Positions 3,877 through 26,844 of a stretch of DNA of 64,000 nt are shown here, one piece after another (position 1 is the first letter of the stretch; each line of letters begins with the position of its first letter). The DNA is taken from IMG/VR virus record IMGVR_UViG_3300027792_000010, one strand, 5' to 3'. Origin of the DNA: a virus. The notes below the pieces were generated by a model that ran no database searches, was not told the origin of the DNA, and saw nothing but the letters and a program-made list of their open reading frames with translations. A program made the translations under genes and the position numbers.

Positions 3877-5055
3877 TTACAGATTTTCCAATAAATCATC
3901 CAAGTCTATCCCGGTGTCCGATACAGAGGCCGAATCTTCCTTAACGGGCTCTTTCTTACCCTTCGCCTTTGCTTGCTCAGTTTTCTCTGAGGGTTTATCT
4001 TCCTTAGGTTCTACTACAACTCCAACCTCCGTCTCCGAAGCATTCGAAGGAGCTTTCACATCTTCCTGAAGAAGACTACCATCCTCATCGAGGACACTCA
4101 ATATGTCCGATATTGAATCCCCCTCCTCATCGGAATTATCTTCATCCTCCGTTGCTATTGAAGTAGCAACTGTCGAGGACTCTTCCTCCTCAGCTTCTAC
4201 TGCCGTAGAAGCCTTTAGAGTAGAAACTCCAGGCAGGTCATCTAAACCGTCCATGAGTGATAACATATCAATATCATCTGATGGCTCAGGCTTACCTGAT
4301 GTATTATCATCTGAGAAGCCCTCTATCTCAATAGTTTCCGCAGTACTTTGTACTTGTCCCAATTTGTTTGTCTCGGGAGCATTTTCCTCTGCACTACCTC
4401 CGATGACATCTATGATGTCAGCGTCTATATTATCTGATATAATCTCTTCTGGTATCTTATCTTCAACCAAACTCTCTATATTAGTTAGGTCTATTTCATC
4501 ATCAAGTTTTTCTTCTAATTTACTAAGGTCTCCAAGAGTTTTTGCATACTCCCTGATAGCCGGATCATCAGTAGGTAGAATATTAAGCTTTAGAATCTGA
4601 AGCTCAGTTAATCGGGCTTGGGTCTTAATATCGGAGTTACGAGCACGAAGAAGCTGTATATGGGTGCGTATGGTAGCCAAAACGTTCTGAAAATCAGCAA
4701 CATCGTTCTCAAGTTCCGAAATCCTCTTATTATTTTCCTCATACATCTCATCTACCGCAGCTTCTCTTTCTTTAGCTGTTGTATACTTTTTTCTAATAGC
4801 TTCATTATTTACCAGAGCTTTTCTTTTTAAAATCTCAAGTTCTGCACTCTCTATACTCAGATTCCTTTTTGATACAGTAAGCGCCCTAGACTGATTGATA
4901 TAGATCATCTGAACTTCGCTCATCTTTTTGGCACATTCCGTAAGTTTTCTATTGATGTAAGATGGAGATGGGTTATCCAAATCTTCCAGTTGCACATCTA
5001 ATTTCAACAATTTATCGTATATGTCTGAGAAGTTTATTTTTGTAATCTCTGCCAT
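3877..5055 (-). CDS. Hypothetical protein: N-terminal coiled coil, long acidic disordered tail (possibly UvsY-like mediator)
   Basis: Long ORF coupled to neighbours; helical N-half and D/E-rich C-half. The function is only a positional guess. Confidence 0.55.
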   Translation of the reverse strand: MAEITKINFSDIYDKLLKLDVQLEDLDNPSPSYINRKLTECAKKMSEVQMIYINQSRALTVSKRNLSIESAELEILKRKALVNNEAIRKKYTTAKEREAAVDEMYEENNKRISELENDVADFQNVLATIRTHIQLLRARNSDIKTQARLTELQILKLNILPTDDPAIREYAKTLGDLSKLEEKLDDEIDLTNIESLVEDKIPEEIISDNIDADIIDVIGGSAEENAPETNKLGQVQSTAETIEIEGFSDDNTSGKPEPSDDIDMLSLMDGLDDLPGVSTLKASTAVEAEEEESSTVATSIATEDEDNSDEEGDSISDILSVLDEDGSLLQEDVKAPSNASETEVGVVVEPKEDKPSEKTEQAKAKGKKEPVKEDSASVSDTGIDLDDLLENL

Positions 5056-5111
5056 AGTCTTCCATCCTTGCTCTCAAGTAAAAAGAGTTTTAGGTATTTG
5101 TATTCGTTTTT

Positions 5112-5140
5112 AATGTAATAATTTGTTCTGAGTTTTTAAA
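5112..5140 (-). promoter_or_regulatory. Class I (sigma70-like) promoter TTTAAA-N17-TACATT
   Basis: Exact 17-nt spacing, intergenic, upstream of the 5055 gene; same motif at five other intergenic sites. Confidence 0.7.
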
Positions 5141-5150
5141 GTAATTGATA

Positions 5151-5528
5151 TTATTTTTTTAATTGTGTTATTTCAAAGGGGGACTCCGCTCTTTCGTTGA
5201 AGCTATTAAGGAAACGCACGGTCTCATCGTCATCTATATACCCCCAAAAAAAGATAGTTCGTATTTTAGTGGGTATAAGAAGCCTAATTTCATATATATG
5301 AGGGAAATATGATAGAAATATACAGCTATGACTACTACTACTAAGACATTGAAGTGCCATTATTACAGGATCTTCATAGTACCCTTTAATTATGAGGCGA
5401 CTATAACCTATAGATATTAACTGTTCGCTATCTCCAACGACAATAGCTGCTTTAGGTTCTCCACATTCTGATAAGCCTCTGCATTGAAGTACAAAGTCTG
5501 CAAAGATGTTCCTTCTTTTTTCATCCAT
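5151..5528 (-). CDS. dCMP/cytidine deaminase-fold protein lacking Zn ligands (probable pseudoenzyme)
   Basis: AAIVVGDSEQLISIGYS matches GAVIV..D..IIS.GYN, and CIFLSYFPHIYEIRLLIPTKIRTIFF matches TLYVT.FPC..CAKLII..GIK.V.Y. HxE and PCxxC are absent. Confidence 0.55.
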   Translation of the reverse strand: MDEKRRNIFADFVLQCRGLSECGEPKAAIVVGDSEQLISIGYSRLIIKGYYEDPVIMALQCLSSSSHSCIFLSYFPHIYEIRLLIPTKIRTIFFWGYIDDDETVRFLNSFNERAESPFEITQLKK

Positions 5529-7705
5529 TGATTGATCCTTTGCCCAAAAAGGGTGTTTCTTTTCTGTATCCGGTCATTTTCTATAGCATCTATTATAGCA
5601 GACCCTTGGCCTATCACAATTACTTTTTTCTTCGCTCTTGTTAGAGCTGTATAGAGTAGGTTGCGCTGTAGTATCTTACTACCGTGTGCTTTTACAATAG
5701 GGATAATAACTAAAGGATATTCCTGGCCCTGTGATTTGTGACAACTTACACTGTACGCTAATCTAAGCATATCATCAGCTATCTTAATTGGTATGTCTAT
5801 TCTTCTATAAACCCCATTAAAATCATCTATCTCTATTACTGCATCTGTACTAGTAATATTAACTACTTTACCTATATCTCCATTATAAATATCAAGGTCA
5901 TAATTATTCTTTTTTATAAGTACTCGATCACCTCTCCTAATAGTGCCGCTTATTAGGTGAATCTCTCTTTCTGAACCAGGAGGATTTAAAGCAGCCTGTA
6001 GTGCTATATTAAGAGAGTCAACACTAAGAGGACCTGAGTTCCTTGGGGTAATAATCTGAAAGATAGTAGGTTGTTTTTTAGTTTTATTCAGCTCTTTAAT
6101 ACTGCTAGCGAAGCCTACTATAGCTTTTTCAATCCTATCCAAATTGGAGTCTCTAATAAACCAAATATCTGCATTTTTTTCGTTCTTAAATAAGCTAAGG
6201 TCTGTATCTCCATCTCGTATTTTTCTAGCAGCTTTAATGATGTCCGATTGTTCTTCCTGCCTAAAAATCTGGTTTAATTTGATAGTGTGGATAACCCCAC
6301 ACTCTATAAGCTCGCGTAGCACACTCCCAGGCCCCACAGAAGGCAGTTGGTCGTTATCGCCTACGAAGACAAGCTTGGTCTGCGAGTAAAGCGAAGAAAC
6401 CATCCTGTAGAAGACTTCCTGGTCAACCATAGATACTTCATCAACTATAATAACCTGTGTAGAGTACTTATTAAGGGCGTTATATGCCCAGGTATCCCCT
6501 TTATACCCGAATCTGCGATGTATTGTATAAGCTTCGTTATTAGCAGTGCTTGCCAACTTTTTTGCTGATATCCCCGTAGGAGTAAGTAGCTCAAAAGAAA
6601 TATTGTTTTGTTTCATTATCTCAACAAAAGCTTTTACAATTGTGGTTTTACCACACCCTGGGCCTCCTGTTACTATTACTATCTTATTATTTACGAAAGA
6701 ATAGATAGCATCCTTCTGCTCAGCACTTAAAGTAATCTTATTACTTAACTCGTATTTTGTTATAAACTCTTCTGTATTAAAGTTTTTAAAGTTGCAGGTA
6801 TCTTTACCCTCTAAAATTTTGTTTATTAACCTAGCGCTTTCATTTTCATAAAAAAAGGAACTAAGCTCATAGTACCTATCTCCCTCCTTATAGATGAAAC
6901 CATCTTTAATAAGCTTTTTCAGATGGACTTCTATATCCTCGAAATTTACACCAGTAGGACTAAAAGGTTGTTGAGTTAGCTTATTATACTCATTAAAAAT
7001 AGAGACTAACTCCTCTCCGTTCAAAAAGAGGTGCCCTGATTGTAGACAGCCTTTTAGAGTATAGAGTATAAAATAACGATATCTTAGAGGATCTTGAGGA
7101 GACATACCAAGTTTGTTAGCAAGGAAGTCACAGGTACTGAAGCCAAATCCTTCAAAGCTTAGTAAGAAAGGGTTTTGCTTTATAACCATTTCAGCATTAT
7201 AGCCATACATAGATACTATCTTATTAATCTTGTAAGGAGATAGACCCAAAGAGTGTAGAAAAATCTTAACATCTTTGAGTTCTTTATTTTCTTTCCAAGC
7301 CTCAACAAGACTTTTTACGATAGACTCCCCAATACCCTCTAACTCCAGGAGTCTTTCAGGCTCGTGATAGATAATATGGTCGAGGTCCTTACCCTCAAAA
7401 TGCTCTGCTATTAAATAAGAGCGTTCTGGCCCTATCCACTTTGCAATAGATTGCAGGAATAGAACTAAACCATTTTTTGAGCTATCATGGGAAAAAGCAA
7501 AAGACTGAGCACGAAAACTTACACCATATTTTGGATGACTTTTATAATCACCGTGAGCCTCAACAACGGCTCCTATAAGAAGATTAGGAACTTCTGCCTG
7601 AACAGTAATACAAGACTTGTCCTTTTGTCGGATCGTAAAAATCTTGAAGTTACTATCAGGGTCATTAAATTTAACTCGTTCTACTTTACCTATAATGGTT
7701 TCCAT
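5417..7705 (-). CDS. recD2: RecD2-family SF1B helicase
   Basis: N-terminal OB/HhH region, GGPGCGKTT, IIVDEVSM, VGDNDQLPSVGPG, IFRQ, YSVSCHKSQGQEY, LLYTALTRAK. Confidence 0.95.
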   Translation of the reverse strand: METIIGKVERVKFNDPDSNFKIFTIRQKDKSCITVQAEVPNLLIGAVVEAHGDYKSHPKYGVSFRAQSFAFSHDSSKNGLVLFLQSIAKWIGPERSYLIAEHFEGKDLDHIIYHEPERLLELEGIGESIVKSLVEAWKENKELKDVKIFLHSLGLSPYKINKIVSMYGYNAEMVIKQNPFLLSFEGFGFSTCDFLANKLGMSPQDPLRYRYFILYTLKGCLQSGHLFLNGEELVSIFNEYNKLTQQPFSPTGVNFEDIEVHLKKLIKDGFIYKEGDRYYELSSFFYENESARLINKILEGKDTCNFKNFNTEEFITKYELSNKITLSAEQKDAIYSFVNNKIVIVTGGPGCGKTTIVKAFVEIMKQNNISFELLTPTGISAKKLASTANNEAYTIHRRFGYKGDTWAYNALNKYSTQVIIVDEVSMVDQEVFYRMVSSLYSQTKLVFVGDNDQLPSVGPGSVLRELIECGVIHTIKLNQIFRQEEQSDIIKAARKIRDGDTDLSLFKNEKNADIWFIRDSNLDRIEKAIVGFASSIKELNKTKKQPTIFQIITPRNSGPLSVDSLNIALQAALNPPGSEREIHLISGTIRRGDRVLIKKNNYDLDIYNGDIGKVVNITSTDAVIEIDDFNGVYRRIDIPIKIADDMLRLAYSVSCHKSQGQEYPLVIIPIVKAHGSKILQRNLLYTALTRAKKKVIVIGQGSAIIDAIENDRIQKRNTLFGQRINQWMKKEGTSLQTLYFNAEAYQNVENLKQLLSLEIANS

Positions 7706-7932
7706 TAAATACTCTTCTTATTGAATAATATGTCTAATCCAGATTTAGCCATAAGTACCAAAATAGCTACTAAGAACAAGCAGGCAAAACCTACTACAAT
7801 ACCAGCTGCGGAACTAACTACCTTATAAATGATAGATTGTACTAAACTCCCTGTAGGGGAGTATATAAGCAAAAGTATTGATACTATAAAAATAGGTAGC
7901 AATAGTGATAGTGCTGGGATAATCTTTTTCAT
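7705..7932 (-). CDS. Small two-TM membrane protein
   Basis: Two hydrophobic segments; 1-nt overlap with the recD2 start. Confidence 0.6.
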   Translation of the reverse strand: MKKIIPALSLLLPIFIVSILLLIYSPTGSLVQSIIYKVVSSAAGIVVGFACLFLVAILVLMAKSGLDILFNKKSI

Positions 7933-7954
7933 TTTGATCCTTGATTACTAAAAA

Positions 7955-8566
7955 TTAAAAGATATACTTTCGATCTACTTTGACGATTATGTACTCTCCC
8001 TCTTTGTAGGTAGAAAACTTCATACCATCTGAGAAAGCCCGCCCAGCATTAACTTCAAGTACTACAACTTCATCACCTTCAAGAGTTGCAAACTTTTTAG
8101 CAAAGTCCTCCGCCATTTCCGCGGTCTCATAGAGCTTTATATATTTCTTCGTATGGCTCTTCAAACCGCTTTCTTTCATACGTTCTACAAGATTCTTCAA
8201 TGTTCCGAAATAAAGGGTTTGAGGCGGTTGTACGTACTTTACGATTTTATATTTGATAAGGTCTTCTCCATTTATGAGAATTTTTTGATCCCTATCTTTG
8301 AAGTATAGCTCTATAATATGATTTCGATTTATATAGTATAGCTCTGGAAAGCGCCACTTCAAGAAAGCAACAATAGCATCTATTTTAACAAATCCATTAG
8401 CGTCTGTACTTATTTGATAGTCACCTACCTTAATAGTCTCTGCTTCCATATCAGATGCATCACGTAGTATATCAATAACAGATAAGAGAGCAACTTTAAG
8501 ATCATTAACATTTTTGTAGAGTGTTGCAGGTGACTTATTAAAAGTTTTTTTTGCAGGCATAAACAT
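7955..8566 (-). CDS. Tpt1/KptA (RNA 2'-phosphotransferase)-like protein with degenerate active site
   Basis: ILRD...TDANGFVKIDAI, PPQTLYFGT, SGLK...YIKL, VVVLEVNAGRAFSDGMKF...GEYI all align with KptA; catalytic and NAD-binding His/Arg residues are substituted. Confidence 0.7.
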   Translation of the reverse strand: MFMPAKKTFNKSPATLYKNVNDLKVALLSVIDILRDASDMEAETIKVGDYQISTDANGFVKIDAIVAFLKWRFPELYYINRNHIIELYFKDRDQKILINGEDLIKYKIVKYVQPPQTLYFGTLKNLVERMKESGLKSHTKKYIKLYETAEMAEDFAKKFATLEGDEVVVLEVNAGRAFSDGMKFSTYKEGEYIIVKVDRKYIF

Positions 8567-8592
8567 ACTAAACTCCTTAGATGTGTTACTGG

Positions 8593-8988
8593 TTAAACTT
8601 CTTGTTTATGTACATCGACTACTTGTTTAGTTTTATCATACTCCATATCTTTTTTCAAAGAATCCTCTCTTTCAAGTAAGCCATCAATTATATAGTTAAG
8701 TACCTCATTAACTGTTTTAATTTCCCCAACCAAATGTTCTAAGAGCTTGAATAATGGGTTGTCTTTATTTTTTGATATCTCTTTAACAACATCTTTATCT
8801 GAACCTACTACTGAATATAATAAGTTCATAATCTGCTCAGTAATTTTTGTATTAAAATTGACTTTTTTATTTATAAATACTTTTAGGTCATTAGAGATTC
8901 CCTCTAAGGAGAAAGTTACAGCTGTATTCTTAAATCTCTCCTCATTGAACTTTTCAAATTTTCTTTTAATATTTTCTGGATTAGTCAT
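8593..8988 (-). CDS. Hypothetical protein
   Basis: 131-aa ORF, first gene behind a class I promoter. Confidence 0.65.
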   Translation of the reverse strand: MTNPENIKRKFEKFNEERFKNTAVTFSLEGISNDLKVFINKKVNFNTKITEQIMNLLYSVVGSDKDVVKEISKNKDNPLFKLLEHLVGEIKTVNEVLNYIIDGLLEREDSLKKDMEYDKTKQVVDVHKQEV

Positions 8989-9033
8989 AGTTGTCCTTAT
9001 ACCGTTAAAAGCTGATTAAGTTCTCTGAGATTT

Positions 9034-9062
9034 AATATACTAATTGGTTTGAACTTTTTAAA
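9034..9062 (-). promoter_or_regulatory. Class I promoter TTTAAA-N17-TATATT (leftward)
   Basis: Exact motif upstream of the leftward gene cluster. Confidence 0.7.
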
Positions 9063-9169
9063 ATCTAATATTAAGAAAAAGGTATAAGAATTTGATATAT
9101 ACTTTTTTATAATGAATCGTTTTCATATATTATATAAATAAAGATCTAATAGTTTACTTCCATAGGAAG

Positions 9170-9217
9170 GAAACAGTAATAACCAAAAAGAACCCTATCA
9201 ATCCTGTTACTTGGATT
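9170..9217 (+). repeat. 48-bp direct repeat, copy 1
   Basis: GAAACAGTAATAACCAAAAAGAACCCTATCAATCCTGTTACTTGGATT; 47/48 identical to 10013-10060. Confidence 0.95.
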
Positions 9218-9296
9218 CGGCTTTAAAGGCATAGTTTATTTAAAGAGTTCTAAATATGATTAATAATATAGTACCTATAAATTTTATGCCAAGAAC

Positions 9297-9325
9297 TTTA
9301 AAAAATATAAACCAAAAGGTATATT
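9297..9325 (+). promoter_or_regulatory. Class I promoter TTTAAA-N17-TATATT (rightward)
   Basis: Exact motif 30 nt upstream of the ORF at 9356, which has an AGGAG site. Confidence 0.7.
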
Positions 9326-9355
9326 CATTAAAGAACAGATTAGGAGAGATCGATT

Positions 9356-9742
9356 ATGAACAGAATTATTACTATAGTCTCATCTGATAAGATTACTCTA
9401 TCTATGTTCATAGACTTCTATGAGAAACTCTATGGAGATAATAAACTAGTCTTAGTTAGAGATATTAACTTTCTTTACTCTAAGCCTGTCCAGGAAAATA
9501 TATTTGTAGATTCTCTTAGAGAGGCTAAACAAAAAGGTCTGAGTCTTATTATAAAATACACTATTAAATCAAATACAGACCTAGCTAAGTATATGATTCC
9601 TATGTGTTTTCTCGATAATTCCGATTTGGTTATTAAGTTTGACATGTTCTCTTCAAAACCAGAAATTATTAAAGATAAACAAGGATCTACCCACCTTCTT
9701 GAAAGGTGGGAGGCAAATATTTCTGCATTGGATAGAACATAG
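9356..9742 (+). CDS. Hypothetical protein (possible degenerate RecA/DnaB-like fold)
   Basis: Good ribosome-binding site and promoter; weak pattern LVLVRD...LREAKQKGLSLII...SDLVIKF...IIKDKQG. Confidence 0.6.
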   Translation: MNRIITIVSSDKITLSMFIDFYEKLYGDNKLVLVRDINFLYSKPVQENIFVDSLREAKQKGLSLIIKYTIKSNTDLAKYMIPMCFLDNSDLVIKFDMFSSKPEIIKDKQGSTHLLERWEANISALDRT

Positions 9743-10012
9743 ATATTATACTTATGATAACCCTCATATTAAAAGCTACAAAAGCTAAACGTCTATGAGG
9801 AATTTTGACAGGGATTTAGGAAACCTGTTTCGTACATCAGTCTACTGCTTTAAATATCAGGAAGATGTAGTACGACCAGAAGCCTTAAAAAGGCCGATGG
9901 AGAACAGCTGATAGCAACTCTCGCTGAAATCGTAGCGTCAGAGGCTAAAGCCTTTCAGTATATAAGTCATTGATTTGGCTGTGTATTGACCGACTAAATC
10001 TTAACAAAAAAA

Positions 10013-10060
10013 GAAACAGTAATAACCAAAAAGAAGCCTATCAATCCTGTTACTTGGATT
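10013..10060 (+). repeat. 48-bp direct repeat, copy 2
   Basis: One mismatch to 9170-9217; followed by a CCCCGC/GCGGGG hairpin (10074-10091). Confidence 0.95.
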
Positions 10061-10126
10061 AAATTATTTAATGCCCCGCCTATTAGCGGGGGACAAGTTA
10101 TTAAAACGTAGTCGAAGGGGAATCCT

Positions 10127-11134
10127 TTGTTCTTCACAAAGATTAAAGGACATTCAGATATATTGTCCCAACTAAAAGAATGGCTACTTAATGAGTCTTT
10201 CTCTGGGGTATATCTTTTATGTGGGCCTAAGGGTGTAGGGAAGTATAGTACAGCAAAAATACTTTCAAAATATATACTATGCAATGGGTTAAAGGATGAT
10301 AGTTGTCGCTGTGCTCAGTGTAAGCAGTTCCCAGACCACCCTGATTTTCTGGAGATAGGTACCAATGAAGATGAGGAATTAAAAGTAGCTGATATAGATA
10401 GAGTCGATGAGTTTGTGACCTTACTACCCTTCAAAAGCAAGTATAGGGTTGTTTTGATAGATAATGCGGATAACTTAAACAATCAGGCAGGTAATAAGCT
10501 ACTTAAGATTTTAGAAGACTCAAAGCCTCATACCTTATTTTTTCTTGTTTCATCATTTCATGAGAAGCTCCTACCTACGGTTCATTCCAGAGCTTATTCA
10601 GTAGAGTTTAAAGCTCTGCAGTCGGAAGATATACTTGAAATACTTAAGACTCAAAGGATAGAACCTAATAAAATAGAAGCCTTAAAGGGTGTTGTTCCTT
10701 TTCTCACTCAGAGTATCCTAAAAGATGCCCTTAAGTATTATGAGTATGTAAGGGAACTTCCAGAATTCCTATTAGGGTTTTCTACAAAGACAGAAGATGA
10801 AGTCTTATCCTATTTAAGTTCAGTAAATGATAAAGAAGAACTTCTTTATTTCATAGAAGTTTTATTAGTGTATACCAACGATATTTTGAAGATAAAATAT
10901 GATGGTTCCGATTCAGTTATTTTTAAGAGTAGCCATGAGACCACAGTAAAAATATCTTTGGATTGGACCGATGATATTTGTGTAGCTCTGACTGAGAAGA
11001 TAAGAAAAATAATCACGGACAATAATAAGAATCTGTATATAAAATTGTACCCAAGAGTAAAAGTCGCAGTTAGTTGGATATATATGATATTAAAGACAGA
11101 GATTGAGAAAAGGAAGAAGAAAAATGGATTCTAA
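10127..11134 (+). CDS. holB: DNA polymerase III clamp loader delta-prime subunit
   Basis: YLLCGPKGVGK, Zn module C..CAQC, HPDF, RVVLIDNADNLNNQAGNKLLKILED, LLPTVHSRA. Confidence 0.85.
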   Translation: MFFTKIKGHSDILSQLKEWLLNESFSGVYLLCGPKGVGKYSTAKILSKYILCNGLKDDSCRCAQCKQFPDHPDFLEIGTNEDEELKVADIDRVDEFVTLLPFKSKYRVVLIDNADNLNNQAGNKLLKILEDSKPHTLFFLVSSFHEKLLPTVHSRAYSVEFKALQSEDILEILKTQRIEPNKIEALKGVVPFLTQSILKDALKYYEYVRELPEFLLGFSTKTEDEVLSYLSSVNDKEELLYFIEVLLVYTNDILKIKYDGSDSVIFKSSHETTVKISLDWTDDICVALTEKIRKIITDNNKNLYIKLYPRVKVAVSWIYMILKTEIEKRKKKNGF

Positions 11135-12032
11135 GTTCCTTTTACAGAATAAAGAACCTTTTTTGGTTAAGAGCTACATTGAGCAAATTAGGAATCAATT
11201 TCAGAATTTTGAAGTAGTATATACCGTAGAACCTGCGGACTTCATAGATAACATACATAGAGGTACTCTTTTTGGAGAAGGAAGTAGGATATTAGTTTTG
11301 AACCCTCTTACCGAGGAAGCATTAGAACCGATACACTCTGTAGTGTGTATGGAATCCCCAGATGTTTTTGTACTAGTAGATAATGGCGGACTTTCCAAAA
11401 ATAAGTTTTATACCAAGGTAAAGGCTCTCTGCAAAATTATAAAGGTAGAAAAATTAGAGGATAGGGAAGTAGAACCGTGGACTGACAAATATCTCAGAAA
11501 CAAAGGCTTTACCTGCGATCCAGAGGTATCTACTATAATAGCTTCAAGAAAAGGGAACAACCTTTACGCCATAGCCTATGAGATTAGGAAACTAGAGTTT
11601 GCATGTCCTGATAAGAAAGTTTCTAAACAAAAGTGTCTTGAGTTAGTTTCTTTTTCCGGGGAGACCAAGTTTTTTGATTTTTGTGACTACTTCTTTAGGA
11701 GACGGGTAAAAGAGACACTTTCGGAATTAGATAGGGTTTCTGAAGAATCATATATAGGTTTGGTGCATTTTTTGCTATCTTATATAGATAAGTTGTATAA
11801 GATATCTATCTACAAAGAGCAGAAAATGTCTGACGAAGATATCTGTAATATTTTAGATTTTAACAGATACATGTACAAGAGCAAATACCTTGTAGCTTTA
11901 TCAGCACTTGGGAAAGTAAGGCTTTTAAAAATTACGGATCTTTTAAATGACCTTGATCTGAAGTTAAGATTATGTAGATTTGATAAGAAATATTTGATGG
12001 TGAGTCTTATTGCAAGATGTATGAGGGTTTGA
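11124..12032 (+). CDS. holA: DNA polymerase III clamp loader delta subunit
   Basis: TLFGEGSRILVL, W...L..KG, GNNLYAIAYEIRKL, and a C-terminal collar ending DLKLR; adjacent to holB; ATG at 11124. Confidence 0.75.
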   Translation: MDSKFLLQNKEPFLVKSYIEQIRNQFQNFEVVYTVEPADFIDNIHRGTLFGEGSRILVLNPLTEEALEPIHSVVCMESPDVFVLVDNGGLSKNKFYTKVKALCKIIKVEKLEDREVEPWTDKYLRNKGFTCDPEVSTIIASRKGNNLYAIAYEIRKLEFACPDKKVSKQKCLELVSFSGETKFFDFCDYFFRRRVKETLSELDRVSEESYIGLVHFLLSYIDKLYKISIYKEQKMSDEDICNILDFNRYMYKSKYLVALSALGKVRLLKITDLLNDLDLKLRLCRFDKKYLMVSLIARCMRV

Positions 12033-12033
12033 T

Positions 12034-12213
12034 ATGTGCAAATGGAATCCTATAGAATGTAGCGAGAGCAAGACCCGTATAGAGATAAGAAAAGCTGTTG
12101 AAACTGTAGCAGGGATATATGATATGAGAGATACAATTTGCATCGGCTGTGGATCTAAGTCCAGTACTTGTATTGTCCCAGAACCTAAAATGAAAAAAGT
12201 TATAAAAAGATGA
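12034..12213 (+). CDS. Small Cys-rich protein (59 aa; not in ORF track)
   Basis: Manual translation MCKWNPIECSES...CIGCG...KR*; fills the gap and overlaps the next gene by ATGA. Confidence 0.55.
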   Translation: MCKWNPIECSESKTRIEIRKAVETVAGIYDMRDTICIGCGSKSSTCIVPEPKMKKVIKR

Positions 12214-12512
12214 ATAGAAATAACACAGAAGTATCTTTATCTATTTTAGGATTTGCAGCAGCTTTCTTTTTCTTTTTAATTTTTATAAACAAGAAGAAAA
12301 AGAAAAGGAAATCATCGCTTAACCTCCCTTTACTTTTTGATGGTAGGTATTATTCTATTAACTGTAATACTAATAAGCACTACAATTGGACTAATTCACT
12401 TACCTTCTCTGGTAAGGTCATTAAGGAGCTATTAGGAACCCGAAAAGAAAACCTTACTTGTACTACTTGCAAAAATCCATTAATAATAAGAAAAATTGAA
12501 GATGTTGAGTAA
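12210..12512 (+). CDS. Single-TM, Zn-ribbon membrane protein, paralog 1
   Basis: LGFAAAFFFFLIF followed by poly-K, and C-terminal CTTCKNPL. Confidence 0.7.
   Translation: MNRNNTEVSLSILGFAAAFFFFLIFINKKKKKRKSSLNLPLLFDGRYYSINCNTNKHYNWTNSLTFSGKVIKELLGTRKENLTCTTCKNPLIIRKIEDVE
12244..12288 (+). repeat. 45-bp perfect repeat copy 1 (TM-coding segment)
   Basis: Identical to 12542-12586. Confidence 0.95.
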
Positions 12513-12786
12513 TGACGATGATACCATAGCATCCTTATATGTTTTAGGATTTGCAGCAGCTTTCTTTTTCTTTTTAATTTTTATAACAAAAAAGAAAAAG
12601 AAAAAGTACCAAGGCCCTATTCATTTTGCTGATAACGGATTCTATGATTTAGGGTGTAATTGTTGTAATTGGAAAAATATAGCAGTGGAGGGATCAGTGC
12701 TGAATTATCTTCTGAAAAGGGATGGATATTTTTGTCGTACCTGTGGTAATCCTTTGTTTATAAGAAGAGCTGAAATATATGATTGA
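12502..12786 (+). CDS. Single-TM, Zn-ribbon membrane protein, paralog 2
   Basis: Same TM segment and poly-K; CNCC...CRTCGNPL. Confidence 0.7.
   Translation: MLSNDDDTIASLYVLGFAAAFFFFLIFITKKKKKKYQGPIHFADNGFYDLGCNCCNWKNIAVEGSVLNYLLKRDGYFCRTCGNPLFIRRAEIYD
12542..12586 (+). repeat. 45-bp perfect repeat copy 2
   Basis: Identical to 12244-12288. Confidence 0.95.
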
Positions 12787-13090
12787 TCGTGGCGTTGTAA
12801 TAGAGATAGATATTGATAAGGATAGGCTTCGTGAGATCGTCTCAGAAGCTCTTAGGATGATCTATGAGTACCTTGGTGGGGAATATACCAAGACGCAAGG
12901 TGATGTCCTTACTGAGTTGGAAAGCTATATAAGCATAGATCGAATCTCTACTGAGTTCTTTCTTCATATAGGTAGTCGTTCTATCCCAGACATGAAAATG
13001 CGTGTGGACCCTAGGAGAAGAAAAGTTTTTTTGAAGTCTAGCTTCAGGAAAAAAGTTGCGAAACTTAATCATTTTATGAAGTTACTATGA
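12779..13090 (+). CDS. Hypothetical protein
   Basis: 103-aa ORF overlapping the previous gene. Confidence 0.65.
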   Translation: MIDRGVVIEIDIDKDRLREIVSEALRMIYEYLGGEYTKTQGDVLTELESYISIDRISTEFFLHIGSRSIPDMKMRVDPRRRKVFLKSSFRKKVAKLNHFMKLL

Positions 13091-13124
13091 ATATAGAGAT
13101 AATAACTTTGAAAGATATATTATT

Positions 13125-13607
13125 ATGAGAGTAGAACCATTATTTATACGGTATGCCAATGGATCAGCTAGTACCGAGAGTATTATTAAGAGCTATTTAT
13201 CCATAGTTGAGGATGGTAATTCTAAGGAAATAGCAGAAGCCGCTCTTATCAGCATTCCTGACCTTACGATGTTTAGAAGAGACTTTAGGAATTGTATAGA
13301 TGATTTAATAGATAATGGAATTAATAATCAGTTCATAAATTATGTAGATAGCTATATGAAGCCATCGTTAGAGGAGTATATAGAAGGAAGTAATGCATCA
13401 AGAACGGGAGAAAAGAGAAGGGTAATAATAAAGGCAGAGGATACTCCTTGGATAGAGGCTATGGTATGTTACAATATGTCCTTATATATAAGGGTTTATG
13501 GGATTTCTGAGATAAAACATTGTCCTAATTGTGGTAACTTTTTTAGCCATAAGGGAAAATACGCTAAATATTGTAGTGATATTTGTAAGGGAAATGCAAG
13601 TAAATGA
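13125..13607 (+). CDS. CGNR-type zinc finger protein
   Basis: C-terminal IKHCPNCGNFF...KYCSDIC. Confidence 0.6.
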   Translation: MRVEPLFIRYANGSASTESIIKSYLSIVEDGNSKEIAEAALISIPDLTMFRRDFRNCIDDLIDNGINNQFINYVDSYMKPSLEEYIEGSNASRTGEKRRVIIKAEDTPWIEAMVCYNMSLYIRVYGISEIKHCPNCGNFFSHKGKYAKYCSDICKGNASK

Positions 13608-14125
13608 GTATAGCATTGTTAGCTTTTGGGTTACAAAAGGCATACTTACACCCCCAGGGAAGCAGGTATCTTGGAGCTAAAGCTGAGATATACAAGGTTA
13701 GGATACTTGATTACTTCCGAACTTTAAATCGTAATGATATTAAAGTATACTTAATAAGGGAGGTTCATCAAGTTGATGATAAATTTTACAGTAGAACAAA
13801 AACACATTCTATTGCTGGTACTAAAGATGTAGAAATACCAGAGGAGTATAAGCCTTATATTCATTTTATAGTAAATACAAGCAGATACAATGCTTTTTAC
13901 AAAACAGCTCTGGATTCAGAGCTATATAAGATTAAACCTGAAAAGGTGTTCCTATTAGGATTTGAGACCCATACTAATGTTCTTTTTACAGCGGAAGAGC
14001 TAAGAAATAGAGACTATGACGTTACCGTTATAGAGCCATTAGTTATGGCGGAAGATGAATACCTACACTCAATAGCACTTACTATGATGGTTGATTTTTT
14101 ATCTACAGACATTAAACAGGAGTAA
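13604..14125 (+). CDS. Isochorismatase/nicotinamidase (cysteine hydrolase)-fold protein lacking the catalytic triad
   Basis: ALLAFGLQKAY, REVH, HSIAGT, SRYNAFYKTALD, VFLLGFETHTNVLFTA, RDYDVTV: the fold motifs are intact but Asp/Lys/Cys are replaced by Gly/Thr/Asn. Confidence 0.8.
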   Translation: MSIALLAFGLQKAYLHPQGSRYLGAKAEIYKVRILDYFRTLNRNDIKVYLIREVHQVDDKFYSRTKTHSIAGTKDVEIPEEYKPYIHFIVNTSRYNAFYKTALDSELYKIKPEKVFLLGFETHTNVLFTAEELRNRDYDVTVIEPLVMAEDEYLHSIALTMMVDFLSTDIKQE

Positions 14126-14128
14126 ATT

Positions 14129-14449
14129 ATGGTCGATTTATACGAGATAAGGTTAAAGTGCCCCTACTGTAAGACAGAGACCGCCTTATTAGTTCACGAA
14201 AGTAACCCAGTTATGTTTGAATGCCCTGGGTGTGATAAAAATGTTGTGATACAGAATAATATTGTGTATACTATTACAAGGAAGTACTTCAATAAGATAG
14301 CTAAGAAGTATAAGACAGAGCATTGCGGGGAAATTGTTGGTTATAAAATCAATAGCAATGATGTTATCAGCCAAAAAGAGATAGACAACCTCCATAAGGA
14401 ACTATCTGGAATCTCCACAGTAGATGACTTTATTAAGAAGTTAGAATAG
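14129..14449 (+). CDS. Zn-ribbon protein
   Basis: CPYC and CPGC pairs. Confidence 0.65.
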   Translation: MVDLYEIRLKCPYCKTETALLVHESNPVMFECPGCDKNVVIQNNIVYTITRKYFNKIAKKYKTEHCGEIVGYKINSNDVISQKEIDNLHKELSGISTVDDFIKKLE

Positions 14450-14454
14450 TTTAC

Positions 14455-14483
14455 TTTAAAAAACCTTAACCATTAAGTACATT
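14455..14483 (+). promoter_or_regulatory. Class I promoter TTTAAA-N17-TACATT
   Basis: Exact motif in the gap before the 14490-19192 replication genes. Confidence 0.7.
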
Positions 14484-14489
14484 ATTTAT

Positions 14490-14918
14490 ATGGAAAATAA
14501 AGACCTGGATGGAAAAATAGTTTATTTGACCCTTTTCTATGAAAAGTGGATACGAGAAGTTCACCCGGAATTCAACATACCTATGGTCAATCGTTTGGCT
14601 AAGGTTGTTAAGATATTAGATTGGGAAACTGATGAAGGCAAGCTCGTTCTAAGCGAGAGGAAGAGAAACGGCAAATGGGACAAACTAAAGCCAGAGGATT
14701 ACAGGTTTGTTCTTGATATCTACTACCCAGAATTGGCACTCACCAGAAAAACTATAGCTATATCGGAGATGGTACCGAGGTATTATCCAGATAGTAAGGA
14801 TGAATTATTTAAGATCCTACCAGATATTATGATAACTGGGTTACTAAAAAAAGAACAGAATATGTTTAGGGTAGTAAAAAAGAATGTATCTAAACAACCT
14901 AATACAAAGATCAAATAA
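14490..14918 (+). CDS. Hypothetical protein
   Basis: 142-aa ORF in the replication operon. Confidence 0.65.
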   Translation: MENKDLDGKIVYLTLFYEKWIREVHPEFNIPMVNRLAKVVKILDWETDEGKLVLSERKRNGKWDKLKPEDYRFVLDIYYPELALTRKTIAISEMVPRYYPDSKDELFKILPDIMITGLLKKEQNMFRVVKKNVSKQPNTKIK

Positions 14919-15576
14919 GTATATATTTCAGTATCCTGAAGCAGTGACATACTTAGAAGGCAGAGGAATAACTCAGGAAGATATACTTAAATACTCTTTA
15001 GGATTTACGAAATATGTTAGTTTGTCGGATGATGGTTCAGAGGACTATCAATTTCTGGCTAAGAAAACAGCAGGTTTTCAGATGCTTCAGGGTAAACTTA
15101 TTATACCCTGTAAGAATTTATTAGGTCACGTTAATGGGCTTGTAGTTAGAGATATCTACAAGAAAGAATATAGGCAGTACTTTTTAGATGAGGCTAAGAA
15201 GCTAGGGACTTTTTTTGGGCTCTACGAAGCTTTTCCTGAGATACTTCGTACCGGAAAAGTTTTTATCCACGAGGCAGCACTGGATAGTATTTCTTTCGCT
15301 AAGGCGTTTCCTAATAGTGTCTCGGTATTGACTTCCTTCATAAACGAAGTTCAATACGAGACTTTATCTATGTTAGCTGATAAGATTATCATGGTCTTTG
15401 ATGAGGATAGTGCAGGTAGTAAGGGGAGAGATCAAGTCTATAACCTTTATGGGCGTAAACATTTATCTGACATCTCCATTGGGTACAATGATTCTAATGC
15501 TATTCTAAAACGCTTAGGGCAGGAATCTTTTAAGAAATATATATGGAACAGAGTTCCTATTTTACTAAGAGAATAA
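14884..15576 (+). CDS. dnaG: DnaG-like primase catalytic (Toprim) core, no N-terminal Zn domain
   Basis: AVTYLEGRGI...YSLGF, LIIP..N..G.V.G...R, FIHEAALD, MVFDEDSAG. Confidence 0.75.
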   Translation: MYLNNLIQRSNKYIFQYPEAVTYLEGRGITQEDILKYSLGFTKYVSLSDDGSEDYQFLAKKTAGFQMLQGKLIIPCKNLLGHVNGLVVRDIYKKEYRQYFLDEAKKLGTFFGLYEAFPEILRTGKVFIHEAALDSISFAKAFPNSVSVLTSFINEVQYETLSMLADKIIMVFDEDSAGSKGRDQVYNLYGRKHLSDISIGYNDSNAILKRLGQESFKKYIWNRVPILLRE

Positions 15577-15601: not shown

Positions 15602-16951
15602 ATGTTTTCAACAAAGTATCGACCATTGGATTTCAAAAGTGTCATAGGTTTGGAAGTACAGAAGGAAATACTTCAGAATATTCTAAGGAGGCAGGAGTAC
15701 GATCCTGCTTATCTTTTCTCAGGGGATTGGTCAACAGGAAAAACTACTCTTGCTAGAATATTTGCCAGAAGTATTTTTTGTGAAAATCGCAAGGAAGATA
15801 TGTCCCCCTGTAATGAGTGCTTCTCCTGCCGTGAGTTCCTCTCAGAACGCCACCCTGGATACATCGAGATAGATGCTGCAAACAATGGAACAAAGGATAA
15901 GATAAAAGAAATACGAGATAGTTTATCCTATGATTCTGTATCCAGAAGATTAGTAATTCTTTATGATGAGGCACACAATATAAGTAAAGAGGGGAAAGAC
16001 GCTTGGCTTAAGGAGCTTGAGAAGGAATATAAAAATGTACATCTGATATTCTGTACTACAGAAATAGATAAAATGCCTGACTCCCTAAAATCTCGTTGTA
16101 TGCATTTTACGATAAATCATCCCACTGAAGCACACATTAAAGATAAACTCAGATATATTAGTCTACAAAATAATTTAACTGTTGAGGACGATGCCCTTAG
16201 TACTATAGTACAAGGCGTAGGGTGCCATTATAGAGATGCTGAAAATAAGCTGCGTCAGATATCTTTTATAGGTGACATAACTATAGAGAATGCAAAGAAA
16301 GTCGTCAATATCTATAATGAAGAAGTCTCAAAGATGCTTATAGCACTATCCTTTAATATAAATGAGGCTATGGTTATAGCAGACTTCTTAGTACAAAGGA
16401 TGACCATAAAAGAGATATATAACAATATTATTAAGATACTTATTGATAGTCTTAGGTTAATTAATGGGATATCTAATGATAGTCAGACTTATAATGCTAT
16501 TCTAAGTAGTGTAGCTAAACAGTATGGGGAGTCCTTATACGAGGTTATAGATTTTATCCTATCTAAAAATAGATTAAATGATTTATCTTTATTTCAATCG
16601 GACCTTCTTCTGATACATTACAAGTACTTAAGATCTCATTTTGACCCTAAGAATACTACTGCTATCCCTGAACAGCCTACTACATCAAGTACTGAACCTA
16701 TAGAGAGAAAAAAAGTTAATAAGATGGATGAGCTTAAAACAGTAAGTTCCCCGTGGGAAAGAGCAGAGCTAATACGTAATATGAAAAAAGAAAAAAAGGA
16801 AGCTGGGGATACTCGTGTTCCAGAAGTGGTATCCTCAGAATGGGGGTCTCCTGTAGATAGTTTTGGAGTAGGCTCTATCTTGAAGAAGGAGATTACCCCA
16901 GAGCAGTTTGGGAAAAAAGTAAGGAGACTGTTGGATGAAAACAAAATATAA
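15602..16951 (+). CDS. dnaX: DNA polymerase III clamp loader gamma/tau subunit
   Basis: KYRPLDFKSVIG, YLFSGDWSTGKTT, PCNECFSC, EIDAANN, YDEAH, LKSRC, RDAENKL. Confidence 0.9.
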   Translation: MFSTKYRPLDFKSVIGLEVQKEILQNILRRQEYDPAYLFSGDWSTGKTTLARIFARSIFCENRKEDMSPCNECFSCREFLSERHPGYIEIDAANNGTKDKIKEIRDSLSYDSVSRRLVILYDEAHNISKEGKDAWLKELEKEYKNVHLIFCTTEIDKMPDSLKSRCMHFTINHPTEAHIKDKLRYISLQNNLTVEDDALSTIVQGVGCHYRDAENKLRQISFIGDITIENAKKVVNIYNEEVSKMLIALSFNINEAMVIADFLVQRMTIKEIYNNIIKILIDSLRLINGISNDSQTYNAILSSVAKQYGESLYEVIDFILSKNRLNDLSLFQSDLLLIHYKYLRSHFDPKNTTAIPEQPTTSSTEPIERKKVNKMDELKTVSSPWERAELIRNMKKEKKEAGDTRVPEVVSSEWGSPVDSFGVGSILKKEITPEQFGKKVRRLLDENKI

Positions 16952-17600
16952 AGATGAGGGTAAAGAACCTACCAAAAAGAGAGTTCAGGAACCATTACCT
17001 AGCATAGAAAATAAGCCTAATAAGGTAAGTAGGGTTAAAAAGATAAATACTTCTATACAGAATACAAATTTGACCTTTAAATATAAAGGGTGTGGTAGGT
17101 GGGCTATATTTGAAATAAAAGAAGATTGTGATATATCAGAAAATTATGAAGCTATTGAACAAGAGATAAAGAGCGCTTTTGGGGAAGATACAGAGTATTT
17201 TATTCCTGTATATAGGGAAAAATTTGATAGTAAAGCAGTAGGTATAACTCTTTTCGAGGGTTATATTTTCCTACGTTTTGAAAAAAATAAAGAATGTTTA
17301 TGCGACCTTGCTGACTATAATTATCTTGAAGGTCCTTTAATGAAAGGCGGAAAAATCAGTTATGTCAGTGATAAGGAAATAAACGATCTTCGGAGCAATC
17401 TTTTTAAAAAGCTACAAAAACGTTTTCCTCGTAAAGGACAAATAATAGTTCCTAAATTGGGAACTTTTAAGAACTTGGAAGGAAAAGTTGTAGGAGTAGA
17501 CCGAAAAAATAGAGTAGTTAGAGCAGTATTTAAGTTAAGTTCTAGAGAAGTTGTAGCTGATATTAATGTAATAAATTTAGATTTTGAGGAAAACTTATGA
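16935..17600 (+). CDS. NusG-family paralog (NGN + KOW), putative antiterminator
   Basis: YFIP...TLFEGYIFL (NGN domain) and GQIIVPKLGTFKNLEGKVVGVD...VFKLSSREVVADI (KOW domain). Confidence 0.75.
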   Translation: MKTKYKDEGKEPTKKRVQEPLPSIENKPNKVSRVKKINTSIQNTNLTFKYKGCGRWAIFEIKEDCDISENYEAIEQEIKSAFGEDTEYFIPVYREKFDSKAVGITLFEGYIFLRFEKNKECLCDLADYNYLEGPLMKGGKISYVSDKEINDLRSNLFKKLQKRFPRKGQIIVPKLGTFKNLEGKVVGVDRKNRVVRAVFKLSSREVVADINVINLDFEENL

Positions 17601-22942: not shown

Positions 22943-23590
22943 ATGCCCAAGAATTCTATAGAGTTAGATGTTAATGAAATCTTACAGGTACCTATAGACT
23001 CTATTGGGCCTTCTTTTAGTGATAATAAATTAGAATCACAAACAGAGGCTCTTAAGATCTTTGAAAATGTGGAACCGCCAATAGTAGAGGTTAATAACCC
23101 TGCTAATCTTATAAGTGTGAATTTAGTAAATACCTCGATTCAAAAGATTATAGAAGATCCTACTAAAAATGATATATTGGTAGAATCTATAAAAAATGAT
23201 GATCCTGGTATTACGATACTTAATAATATAATGGTTGAGTTAGCTGAAGAGATAGCCTATATGAAAGCTTGGAGGAATAATAACTTCCAGATTGATAAGG
23301 ATGTAACTTCGGAGATTGCTGAGAAAAGAATAAAAGCACTTAATAACCTTACTATGACGGTAATACAAAAAGCAAAGATAATGAATTCTGGTAATAAAGG
23401 AAAAATAGATTTCTATAGTGAAAACTTTTCAAAGATATTTGAATATTTTTTGAAAGTTGTTCAAGATACTTTTCAAAAAGTAGGTATACCGGAGCAATAC
23501 AGGAATATCTACTTATCAGAATTAGCTAAACAGTTAGATGGATTCGAAAAAACAGCAGAAAAAATATACAGTGGTAAGAAGAAAATATGA
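22943..23590 (+). CDS. Hypothetical protein, possible terminase small subunit
   Basis: Helical protein overlapping the terL start (ATGA); functional guess from position only. Confidence 0.45.
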   Translation: MPKNSIELDVNEILQVPIDSIGPSFSDNKLESQTEALKIFENVEPPIVEVNNPANLISVNLVNTSIQKIIEDPTKNDILVESIKNDDPGITILNNIMVELAEEIAYMKAWRNNNFQIDKDVTSEIAEKRIKALNNLTMTVIQKAKIMNSGNKGKIDFYSENFSKIFEYFLKVVQDTFQKVGIPEQYRNIYLSELAKQLDGFEKTAEKIYSGKKKI

Positions 23591-26500: not shown

Positions 26501-26844
26501 AGAGAATAATAGATGGTAGAGTAGATAAAGATTCAGACTTAGTAAAAGAGCTATTAACGTTACAGGCGACACAAAGAAGTAAATATATAGTTAGCGTAGA
26601 AGCTCCAGATAGGTCAGGGGCACATGACGACATGAGCGATGCCTTAGCTCGTGCGGTATTTGTTGCTACCGAATTCAAGAGAAAAGGATACGGTGTAAAA
26701 TTGATTTCTGGAGGTAATTCTGGAGCCAAAGCATTTAAAGTATTAAGAGGCATCGAGATGAGAAAAGCAGAGTTATTGAGACCTACTCGTGGAAGAGTTT
26801 CCACAGGTAGGAGAAACTTCTCATCTGTGATGAGATCTTACTAA
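23587..26844 (+). CDS. terL: Terminase large subunit, intein-containing
   Basis: After splicing, Walker A reads GRRSGK-T; Walker B VALDEM; AISSP coupling motif; nuclease motifs GVDVG and HDDMSDA. Confidence 0.93.
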   Translation: MSIAELCANLISKDGLDIDKILHKNIIEFVTAPWGLGLGTLPGVPSLYPSQRFILKVYYGLSLDRGSNRDIIIKDQFNELELYRFNEYEYFKFLYEQGRINGAEEGVPYTDLTLVCGRRSGKCVCAGTIVNTDKGLIEIQNLGDPKGPEYQPLKIGVAQEGDKKSESSYFYNGGERDTIKIRSFYGFENEGTPNHRIKILDTDGVIKWKYLEDIEVGDIVCIHRKSDMWSKEYVNTEYLSKKSQGRKDNINLPKVFDSTWAKLLGVLSGDGTWALKGGIQVTVGPYKEWLDKVIDIFKETVGEPIIKVDKRREVYSVNYYSVVVREFFNNIGYNVDIKSDTKRIPWVIMQSPKPVVASFLSGLFETDGCIEAKKSTVSFSTASLKLAQEVQILLLNFGIVSRLVGKINKRFNKTYYHIYTLGYRSLKIFHDEIGFISDRKRKLLESRISKGYKGNKSNIESIPYQKQWCINLRESIYKGKSNGIIPKDKPEQRRMLLRGAIGNVIKTNSIEDLTYPRLEKIILVSKELDADSEIIKHFEELQYANYFFDKITTVGKSRSMVYDLNVPDGESFVANGMTNHNTMITSCIIAYETYKLLNIYCPQEYYGIMPESEIRITCVATSKETASELFNAVTGHIERSEFFRRYRNKPTQQRMFLRTQRDIDKYGASKRASLQIHVAPCSAKGLRGHNNIIVALDEMAFFFEDEMKKGKIVAKSSDRNDRAIYTAVTPSIAKFKGKDGKPHGKVIAISSPNTKSGKFYELYEFAFNEENTKSLMIQAPTWEIDSNLSSEFLKKEHVSNRTTFYTEYGAQFSDQVKAWIEDAVILRQNIISGLKYRDRSSLRVPHYAGVDVGLKGDGTAVCICHYVSELVGGAREDFLEVDCCDIRYAELEKKANFTPQDIADWLIDYTKRFNIIKGLLDQYYGMGIIPLLEDKGIKQYEYRVFTEGLNSIIYQNLLTHFISSALRLPEDERIIDGRVDKDSDLVKELLTLQATQRSKYIVSVEAPDRSGAHDDMSDALARAVFVATEFKRKGYGVKLISGGNSGAKAFKVLRGIEMRKAELLRPTRGRVSTGRRNFSSVMRSY
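23953..25329 (+). mobile_element. Intein (459 aa) with LAGLIDADG homing endonuclease in the TerL Walker A
   Basis: GK|CVCAGT...VYDLNVPDGESFVANGMTNHN|T; LAGLIDADG blocks LLGVLSGDGT and FLSGLFETDGC. Confidence 0.93.

Follow-up and report, generated by a model that had tools for sequence, protein, structure and literature searches.

The DNA analysed here is a stretch of 64,000 nucleotides (nt) from IMG/VR virus record IMGVR_UViG_3300027792_000010 (hereafter the window, meaning the whole stretch), a phage sequence of low GC content (~36%) with a recombination operon on the minus strand and a long replication and morphogenesis region on the plus strand. Four open reading frames (ORFs), each present where a previous sequence-only reading had placed it, encode proteins that resemble known enzymes and are missing their active-site motifs:

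13604-14125, plus strand: pseudoenzyme of the PncA/isochorismatase fold, 173 amino acids (aa), with the catalytic triad reading G9/T92/N125 and metal-site residues E53, H55 and H68 kept
7955-8566, minus strand: pseudoenzyme of the Tpt1/KptA fold, 203 aa, with the catalytic tetrad unconserved, the HGT motif reading FGT and the QGHS loop deleted
5151-5528, minus strand: probable deoxycytidine monophosphate (dCMP) deaminase-fold protein without HxE or PCxxC, 125 aa, with its own AAGGA ribosome-binding site and with its first 112 nt overlapping the 3' end of the RecD2 gene
9356-9742, plus strand: RecA-like alpha/beta core without a P-loop (P0004), 128 aa, whose gene opens the plus-strand replication operon and precedes the clamp-loader genes

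The PncA-like protein was matched to Pfam PF00857 (Isochorismatase) at 60.2 bits against a gathering cut-off of 27, and a large protein search returned 130 homologues (120 listed) of ~170 aa each and 40-88% identity, PF00857 being present in all 120 of those listed. Alignment with HMMER against 3o94 and 3eef, and with MAFFT against an intact 174-aa Pseudothermotoga PncA (L018:7995-8519), placed G9, T92 and N125 at the triad Asp, Lys and Cys, bearing out the earlier proposal of a nicotinamidase/isochorismatase fold without catalytic residues, with the whole triad gone. Family columns were counted over 121 members, that is, over the matches listed, and among these the triad Asp occurs in 0/121 (G 59, N 29, S 19, C 11, K 2), the triad Cys in 0/121 (N 49, S 36, T 15, then F, I, A, M and others), and the triad Lys in 33/121. 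Since the former triad columns vary freely, hydrophobic residues included, they are taken to be abandoned catalytic positions. The metal site, E-x-H...H (E53-x-H55...H68), has Glu in place of Asp in 119/121, His in 113/121, and the third His in 86/121 of the same members. In real nicotinamidases the metal site binds the pyridine ring, and its retention is a hint that the phage family may bind a small ligand. Invariance of the charged residues R33, R52, D75, K83, E121 and E144 is peculiar to the phage family.

When one genome per prokaryotic species was scanned with the PncA-like protein, only five loci came up, two of them probably phage contigs binned into metagenome-assembled genomes (MAGs), and three of them cellular, namely two Pseudothermotoga records (one 2.0-Mb contig and one MAG) and one Candidatus Zipacnadia MAG. 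The aligned Pseudothermotoga and Ca. Zipacnadia proteins are canonical small PncA enzymes, with Asp, Lys, Cys and a metal site reading D-W/N-H...H-C. The closest intact relative found was the 174-aa Pseudothermotoga PncA with D/K/C, whose gene is adjoined by a 433-aa ORF, an apparent nicotinate phosphoribosyltransferase.

The Tpt1-like protein scores 34.9 bits against Pfam PF01885 (gathering cut-off 26), and its PDB match is C. thermocellum Tpt1 (6e3a, E 3e-8); against NCBIfam equivalog models it reaches 23-49 bits, below their cut-offs of 231-279. In C. thermocellum Tpt1 the essential tetrad is R18, H19, R68 and R121, and nicotinamide adenine dinucleotide (NAD+) is contacted by K66, H101, T103, R139 and R140 (PMC6333775, from which the tetrad numbering is taken). 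Correspondences were drawn with HMMER, and with MAFFT including E. coli KptA, and Tpt1-like columns were counted over 28 members. R121 corresponds to K140, a Lys invariant in the 28 members, H101 (the HGT histidine) to F120, a Phe in 28/28, and the VHL histidine to K144, likewise invariant. The NAD+-contact residues R139 and R140 correspond to K158 and F159, and T103 to T122, which is kept. A stretch of ~15 residues bearing G-H-S (the QGHS loop) is deleted, and the R18, H19 and R68 columns are unconserved across the 28-member family, the window protein (P0002) reading L-R-D at the KptA L-R-H site and having R92 (HMMER) or I96 (MAFFT) as the counterpart of R68. The fold and the catalytic loss that had been claimed for this protein therefore stand, with a slight correction of detail, since L-R-D is present at the LRH site and an Arg lies opposite R68 in the HMMER alignment, both in unconserved columns. 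Replacement of the H101, R139 and R140 equivalents would argue against retention of a pocket for NAD or ADP-ribose (ADPR). On these alignments, loss of the ancestral catalytic residues is family-wide for both the PncA-like and the Tpt1-like proteins. In Tpt1-like variants of ~293 aa (P0135, P0136, P0141; L009:3791-4684), the winged-helix N lobe is tandemly duplicated.

As a single sequence (P0001), the deaminase-like ORF has no match in Pfam, PHROGs, PDB or NCBIfam, and only 2 homologues were found in a search of 5.8 billion proteins. Syntenic orthologues that are 32-40% identical are found in three more distant phages (L003, L008, L009), and all start with M-D and overlap the RecD2 3' end by ~100 nt. 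A profile built from 7 sequences, over which the columns of this family were counted, puts dCMP deaminases at the top of a PDB search (2w4l, E 0.0046; 7fh4, 0.01; 2hvv, 0.027), and protein-language-model features lie nearest to viral dCMP_cyt_deam clusters (0.90-0.91). The AlphaFold2 (AF2) model has a mean predicted local distance difference test score (pLDDT) of only 63, and reaches a VIA Z of 6.3 to the cyanophage S-TIM5 dCMP deaminase, tied with MPN/JAB domains; in an ESM Atlas shape search with the model, the three best matches were deaminase clusters (template modelling score 0.53-0.58), and Foldseek gave no match below E 0.1, though its ranking agrees with a deaminase. A dCMP-deaminase fold for 5151-5528 is thus likely, not proven, the profile and the model providing moderate evidence. 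None of the 7 orthologues has a His/Glu pair at HxE, and PCxxC aligns with P-[H/N]-x-x-E. Of what had been said of this ORF, the loss of the catalytic residues and the full-length frame hold, and the fold is likely only, given the profile E value, the low model confidence and the MPN tie.

An AAGGA lies 7 nt before the conserved ATG of the deaminase-like ORF. A -1 frameshift joining RecD2 to this frame at an A6 run in the overlap was considered and rejected as the main route, since the ORF has its own AAGGA and conserved ATG, and the A-run forms no X XXY YYZ heptamer in the RecD2 frame. The ORF is confined to the near clade, and none is present at locus L046.

A possible fourth case had been flagged at 9356-9742, and its product appears to be a small RecA-like core without a P-loop. 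The AF2 model of P0004 has a pLDDT of 91.8, and the structures nearest to it are cores of the RecA superfamily (RadA, Z 8.8 across 118 residues; Rad51, T7 gp4, RecA, KaiC and DnaB, Z 7.6-7.8), values that are middling. The Walker A motif G-x4-G-K-[ST] is absent, the link from strand 1 to helix 1 being only 2-3 residues long and reading S-[SP]-D-K. The family comprises 64 representatives, and its profile has no match in PDB or Pfam. A direct repeat of ~51 bp flanks the P0004 gene (9167-9217 and 10010-10060) in the divergent control region, and both copies match the 81%-identical IMG/VR relative at 90-94%.

The nearest relative of the window is one IMG/VR contig, ~81% identical and collinear with it, and its more remote relatives, IMG/VR contigs as well, measure 46-470 kb and share a conserved gene order; a protein search placed the Tpt1-like protein on a 202,460-bp contig. 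In INPHARED there was no DNA match for window positions 5000-14500 and no protein match for the PncA-like or the Tpt1-like protein, and DnaX matches were at most 36% identical. By these INPHARED comparisons the clade, which is one of uncultured jumbo phages, has no cultured relative.

Ratios of nonsynonymous to synonymous substitution (dN/dS) were obtained from one pairwise comparison with the 81%-identical relative, in which dS is near saturation for some genes. The values are 0.030 for the Tpt1-like protein, 0.037 for the PncA-like protein (94% conserved against the near relative), 0.147 for P0004, and 0.235 for the whole deaminase-like ORF, or 0.20 outside the RecD2 overlap, dS being depressed inside the overlap as expected for dual coding. 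Neighbouring genes, including known replication and recombination enzymes, mostly lie at 0.04-0.09, with RecD2, clamp-loader, primase and exonuclease genes at 0.04-0.07. All four proteins are under purifying selection; the direction is unambiguous, and the deep homologue sets agree. The homologues therefore do not evolve neutrally, a check that had been proposed for them, and the view that the region shows no general decay is sustained by dN/dS of 0.03-0.20 for all four proteins (0.20 being the deaminase-like ORF outside the overlap). That the active sites of neighbouring enzymes are intact was confirmed as well, for RecA (GGEGSGKT), RecD2 (GGPGCGKT and VIIVDE), DnaX (GDWSTGKT), and RuvC and Toprim, whose acidic residues are present. 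Since the proteins are full-length, non-catalytic for their ancestral reactions and under purifying selection, they point to repurposing rather than decay.

The genes that accompany the pseudoenzyme genes in the window are the following:

5417-7705, minus strand: RecD2 helicase with intact motifs, fixed neighbour of the Tpt1-like and deaminase-like genes
8593-8988, minus strand: 131-aa protein without recognised family, conserved directly upstream of the Tpt1-like gene
13125-13607, plus strand: conserved protein of 160 aa that ends in a zinc ribbon, the stop of the gene overlapping the PncA-like start by 4 nt (ATGA)
14129-14449, plus strand: 106-aa zinc-ribbon protein (CxxC..CxxC..CG), encoded by the next gene after the PncA-like one in the eight relatives that yielded it
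14490-15576, plus strand: conserved 142-aa protein, then a 230-aa Toprim/DnaG-core protein, next in the conserved gene order

On the minus strand, the order 131-aa protein, Tpt1-like, RecD2, deaminase-like and then recombination genes recurs in the relatives that hold the region. The Tpt1-like gene lies directly upstream of RecD2 even at L046, where its product is only 29% identical, retains L-Y-F-G-T and keeps the last tetrad Arg. RecD2 of a 258-kb relative carries inteins (1271 aa; L003:755-4570), and the window RecD2 (762 aa) has none.

On the plus strand, the recurring order is RecA-like stub, HolB-like, HolA, 103-aa protein, 160-aa zinc-ribbon protein, PncA-like, 106-aa zinc ribbon, 142-aa protein, Toprim, DnaX, NusG-like, 5'-3' exonuclease and sigma factor. 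When loci were anchored independently on the sigma factor, 11/15 of those with enough upstream DNA had the PncA-like gene in place. The 160-aa protein, whose C-terminus reads C-P-x-C...Y-C-S-x-x-C-K and which has no usable match in PDB or Pfam, is conserved together with the PncA-like protein in nine relatives (L001/L002, L003, L005, L008-L011, L013, L014), and the 106-aa protein has no match in L014. The dead PncA is thus bracketed by two conserved zinc-ribbon proteins without recognised family. The 142-aa and 230-aa Toprim proteins are apparently a split primase. Across relatives, identity is 44-58% for the PncA-like protein, 31-57% for DnaX and 25-40% for HolA, and where DnaX and Toprim fall to 31-36% and HolA to 25%, the PncA-like protein is still 44-46% identical; to judge by these identities, it is among the slowest-evolving proteins of the replication module. 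On the evidence of gene order, all four genes are syntenic core genes of the replication/recombination module, each with a fixed neighbour across deep divergence.

The clamp-loader set is bacterial-type, with a HolB-like, delta'-like subunit without Walker A (10127-11134, plus strand) and a DnaX-like subunit with its GDWSTGKT (15602-16951, plus strand). The gene between DnaX and the 5'-3' exonuclease, a short way upstream of the phage sigma factor, is also conserved and encodes a NusG/antiterminator-like protein (16935-17600, plus strand; phrog_6386, E 4e-6). Intein and LAGLIDADG insertions were seen in several large ORFs of the window (23587-26844, 31588-34998, 53890-57519), one of which is a fused GT1+GT2 glycosyltransferase, and a 632-aa ORF (42071-43969, plus strand) matches a LAGLIDADG endonuclease over residues 74-245 and a DNA N6/N4 methylase over residues 524-632. 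In a 305-kb relative (L005), two TnpB/OrfB_IS605-type genes (7900-9066 and 14268-15236) lie within the replication and nucleotide-metabolism region, beside an intein-bearing ribonucleotide reductase.

The best explanation, advanced tentatively and held to be quite possible rather than probable, is that an uncultured jumbo-phage lineage has fixed four separate pseudoenzymes as non-catalytic parts of its DNA replication/recombination module. Since the genes are fixed, slowly evolving and embedded in operons, they are better read as parts of the replication/recombination machinery than as arms-race accessory genes. The four would have originated from a small PncA-type nicotinamidase, a Tpt1/KptA RNA 2'-phosphotransferase, probably a dCMP deaminase, and a RecA-like ATPase core, and, to go by anatomy and synteny, they may act by binding rather than catalysis, serving RecD2, the primase region and the clamp loader as accessory or regulatory subunits. 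The Tpt1-like protein could work through its winged-helix N lobe, duplicated in some relatives, with the lysine-rich former active site touching nucleic acid, and the PncA-like protein through protein contacts, possibly together with its retained metal/pyridine pocket.

Four points weigh against this explanation. Synteny is a sign of co-inheritance and co-expression, not of contact. A purely structural role leaves unexplained why three of the four ancestral folds work on NAD or nucleotides. The kept metal ligands and the new invariant charged residues of the PncA-like protein, as read from the alignments, would also fit a new enzymatic or ligand-binding site. Finally, four loci, among them the most distant relatives, lack the PncA-like gene (L033, L038-L040): one is at mid-distance, and the other three have identical matches, perhaps one phage, with a sigma factor that is 38% identical. 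The gene is therefore not indispensable to this kind of replisome.

The third of these points leads to the alternative that survives best, although it is judged unlikely, namely that at least the PncA-like protein is a metal-dependent catalyst still, acting on another substrate (for example in nucleotide or DNA-modification chemistry) through E-x-H...H and E121. It would draw on the conserved metal ligands, on the phage-invariant E121 directly before the ancestral T-H, which together with R52 and D75 flanks the old active site, on the 94% conservation against the near relative, and on the presence in the genome of glycosyltransferase and methylase genes, and hence of DNA or glycan modification chemistry. 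However, the former nucleophile and general-base positions are freely variable, hydrophobic residues included, the third metal ligand is lost in 29% of the members among the matches listed, and the Tpt1-like and deaminase-like proteins have no comparable replacement site. We know of no precedent for isochorismatase-fold catalysis without the Asp, and none was found in the literature search, which also argues against this alternative.

Phages are known to make sponge proteins (Tad1, Tad2, Acb2), and the sequence-only reading had suggested that the dead folds were repurposed as sponges, decoys or dominant-negative poisons. Repurposing holds; the sponge, decoy and poison roles are unsupported in view of core synteny, slow evolution and the replaced NAD contacts. 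Under such a role, the proteins would sequester NAD-derived or nucleotide signals or precursors (nicotinamide, ADPR derivatives, dCTP/dTTP), or poison host oligomers, which would suit the ligands of three ancestral folds (NAD, nicotinamide or pyrimidine nucleotides), the metal/pyridine site that the PncA-like family retains, and proteins that are small, soluble-looking and expressed alongside early and middle replication genes. Counter-defence genes are typically patchy, fast-evolving accessories, whereas these are core, syntenic and slow-evolving, and their synteny persists even between phages with clamp-loader subunits only 25-33% identical. The deaminase-like protein has lost its Zn ligands, nicotinamide sequestration would be of no obvious help against NADase defences, and poisoning of host oligomers seems unlikely at ~30% identity to the closest intact PncA found. 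PADLOC gave no match for the four proteins, and their Pfam and PHROGs matches are only to ancestral enzyme families (sponge families were not checked by name). Because of the fixed, operon-embedded synteny and the lost NAD contacts of the Tpt1-like protein, this explanation is ranked low, as a doubtful one.

More specific still, and improbable, is the proposal that the dead PncA is a nicotinamide/NAD-state sensor wired to the primase and the zinc-less deaminase the same for pyrimidine nucleotides on RecD2, or else that these are core-genome, enzyme-derived ligand sponges; if the sensor version were true, the phage replisome would directly read defence-induced depletion of NAD+ or deoxynucleotides. 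The general form of the sensor idea, in which pseudoenzymes bind their ancestral ligands (nicotinamide or NAD state, dCTP/dTTP) and adjust the primase or RecD2 to the cell's metabolism or defence status, is given the least credence of the ligand-based alternatives. Fixed replication and recombination neighbours combined with a retained pyridine/metal site would accord with it, as would the known allosteric regulation of dCMP deaminases by dCTP/dTTP, but it is wholly inferential, and the NAD site of the Tpt1-like protein is dismantled. That the genes are relics being lost or chance ORFs, as the overlap of the deaminase-like ORF with RecD2 and its want of a Pfam match might suggest, is next to incredible, being refuted by dN/dS of 0.03-0.20 with dS of 0.6-3, by full-length homologues numbering from dozens to >120, and by the ribosome-binding site and conserved start of the deaminase-like ORF itself.

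Viral pseudoenzymes are established for herpes- and poxviruses, and a review of them names no phage example (PMC7605207). Literature searches on isochorismatase with jumbo phage, and on pseudoenzyme with bacteriophage and sponge, found nothing, and no paper was found describing the PncA-like or the Tpt1-like phage family. The novelty lies in these particular families and in the partners to which they are fixed. Phage pseudoenzymes have scarcely been described, in contrast to the well-documented ones of eukaryotes, herpes- and poxviruses; in the present case a dead nicotinamidase ranks among the best-conserved proteins of a jumbo-phage replication module, and a dead Tpt1 is tied to RecD2 lineage-wide. 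The two sizeable undescribed families (>120 and ~30 cluster representatives) are likely new components of phage DNA replication or recombination. Source annotations call them "nicotinamidase-related amidase" (PncA-like) and "RNA:NAD 2'-phosphotransferase" (Tpt1-like), labels that mislead, since they would suggest, wrongly, that such phages can salvage NAD or repair RNA.

Compared with small Thermotogae-type PncA (PF00857; solved structures 3o94, 3eef and 3hb7), the window protein is alike in length (173 against 174 aa) and collinear throughout at ~28-30% identity, and the two share the motifs FTAEELRNR, T-R-Y-x-A-F and T-H and the x-H...H part of the metal site. Unlike these enzymes, the phage family has no Asp or Cys (0/121 each, among the matches listed), has Glu for the metal Asp, and has new invariant residues R33, R52, D75, E121 and E144; its gene lies in a replication operon, whereas the cellular Pseudothermotoga gene lies beside a nicotinate phosphoribosyltransferase-like gene. 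With Tpt1/KptA enzymes (6e3a/6ede, E. coli KptA), the phage protein shares the two lobes, a winged-helix N lobe and an ADP-ribosyltransferase-like C lobe, and the PP-x-x-LY-x-GT and G-L motifs and T103 are kept. It differs from them in that the R-H-R-R tetrad is unconserved, with only a Lys at R121, the HGT and VHL histidines are replaced by Phe and Lys, R139/R140 by K/F, the GHS loop (~15 residues) is deleted, equivalog scores are far too low, and the gene always adjoins RecD2. With dCMP deaminases (human 2w4l, PBCV-1 7fh4, S. mutans 2hvv, cyanophage S-TIM5 4p9c/4p9e), the deaminase-like ORF shares a G-Y-N turn and the strand-helix segment that bears PCxxC, and the predicted order of secondary structure in its model fits, in our reading, the dCMP deaminase core fold; in contrast to them, it has no Zn ligands and no catalytic Glu, is shorter (125 aa), overlaps the RecD2 3' end, and occurs in the near clade only.

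Among viral pseudoenzymes, herpesvirus vGAT and the poxvirus SOD-like decoys (PMC7605207) are likewise enzyme scaffolds that selection maintains in a non-catalytic state for use in binding, but they have other folds, and here the setting is a phage one, with partners that are only putative. The Tad1, Tad2 and Acb2 sponges are likewise small non-catalytic phage proteins, and binding of NAD-derived or nucleotide ligands, carried over from the earlier reading, would be a functional analogy; they differ in that the pseudoenzyme genes are core, syntenic replication-module genes and not accessory ones. Clamp-loader delta and delta' are classical inactive AAA+ ATPase paralogues and offer a further parallel, and the phage's own HolB-like subunit also has no Walker A.

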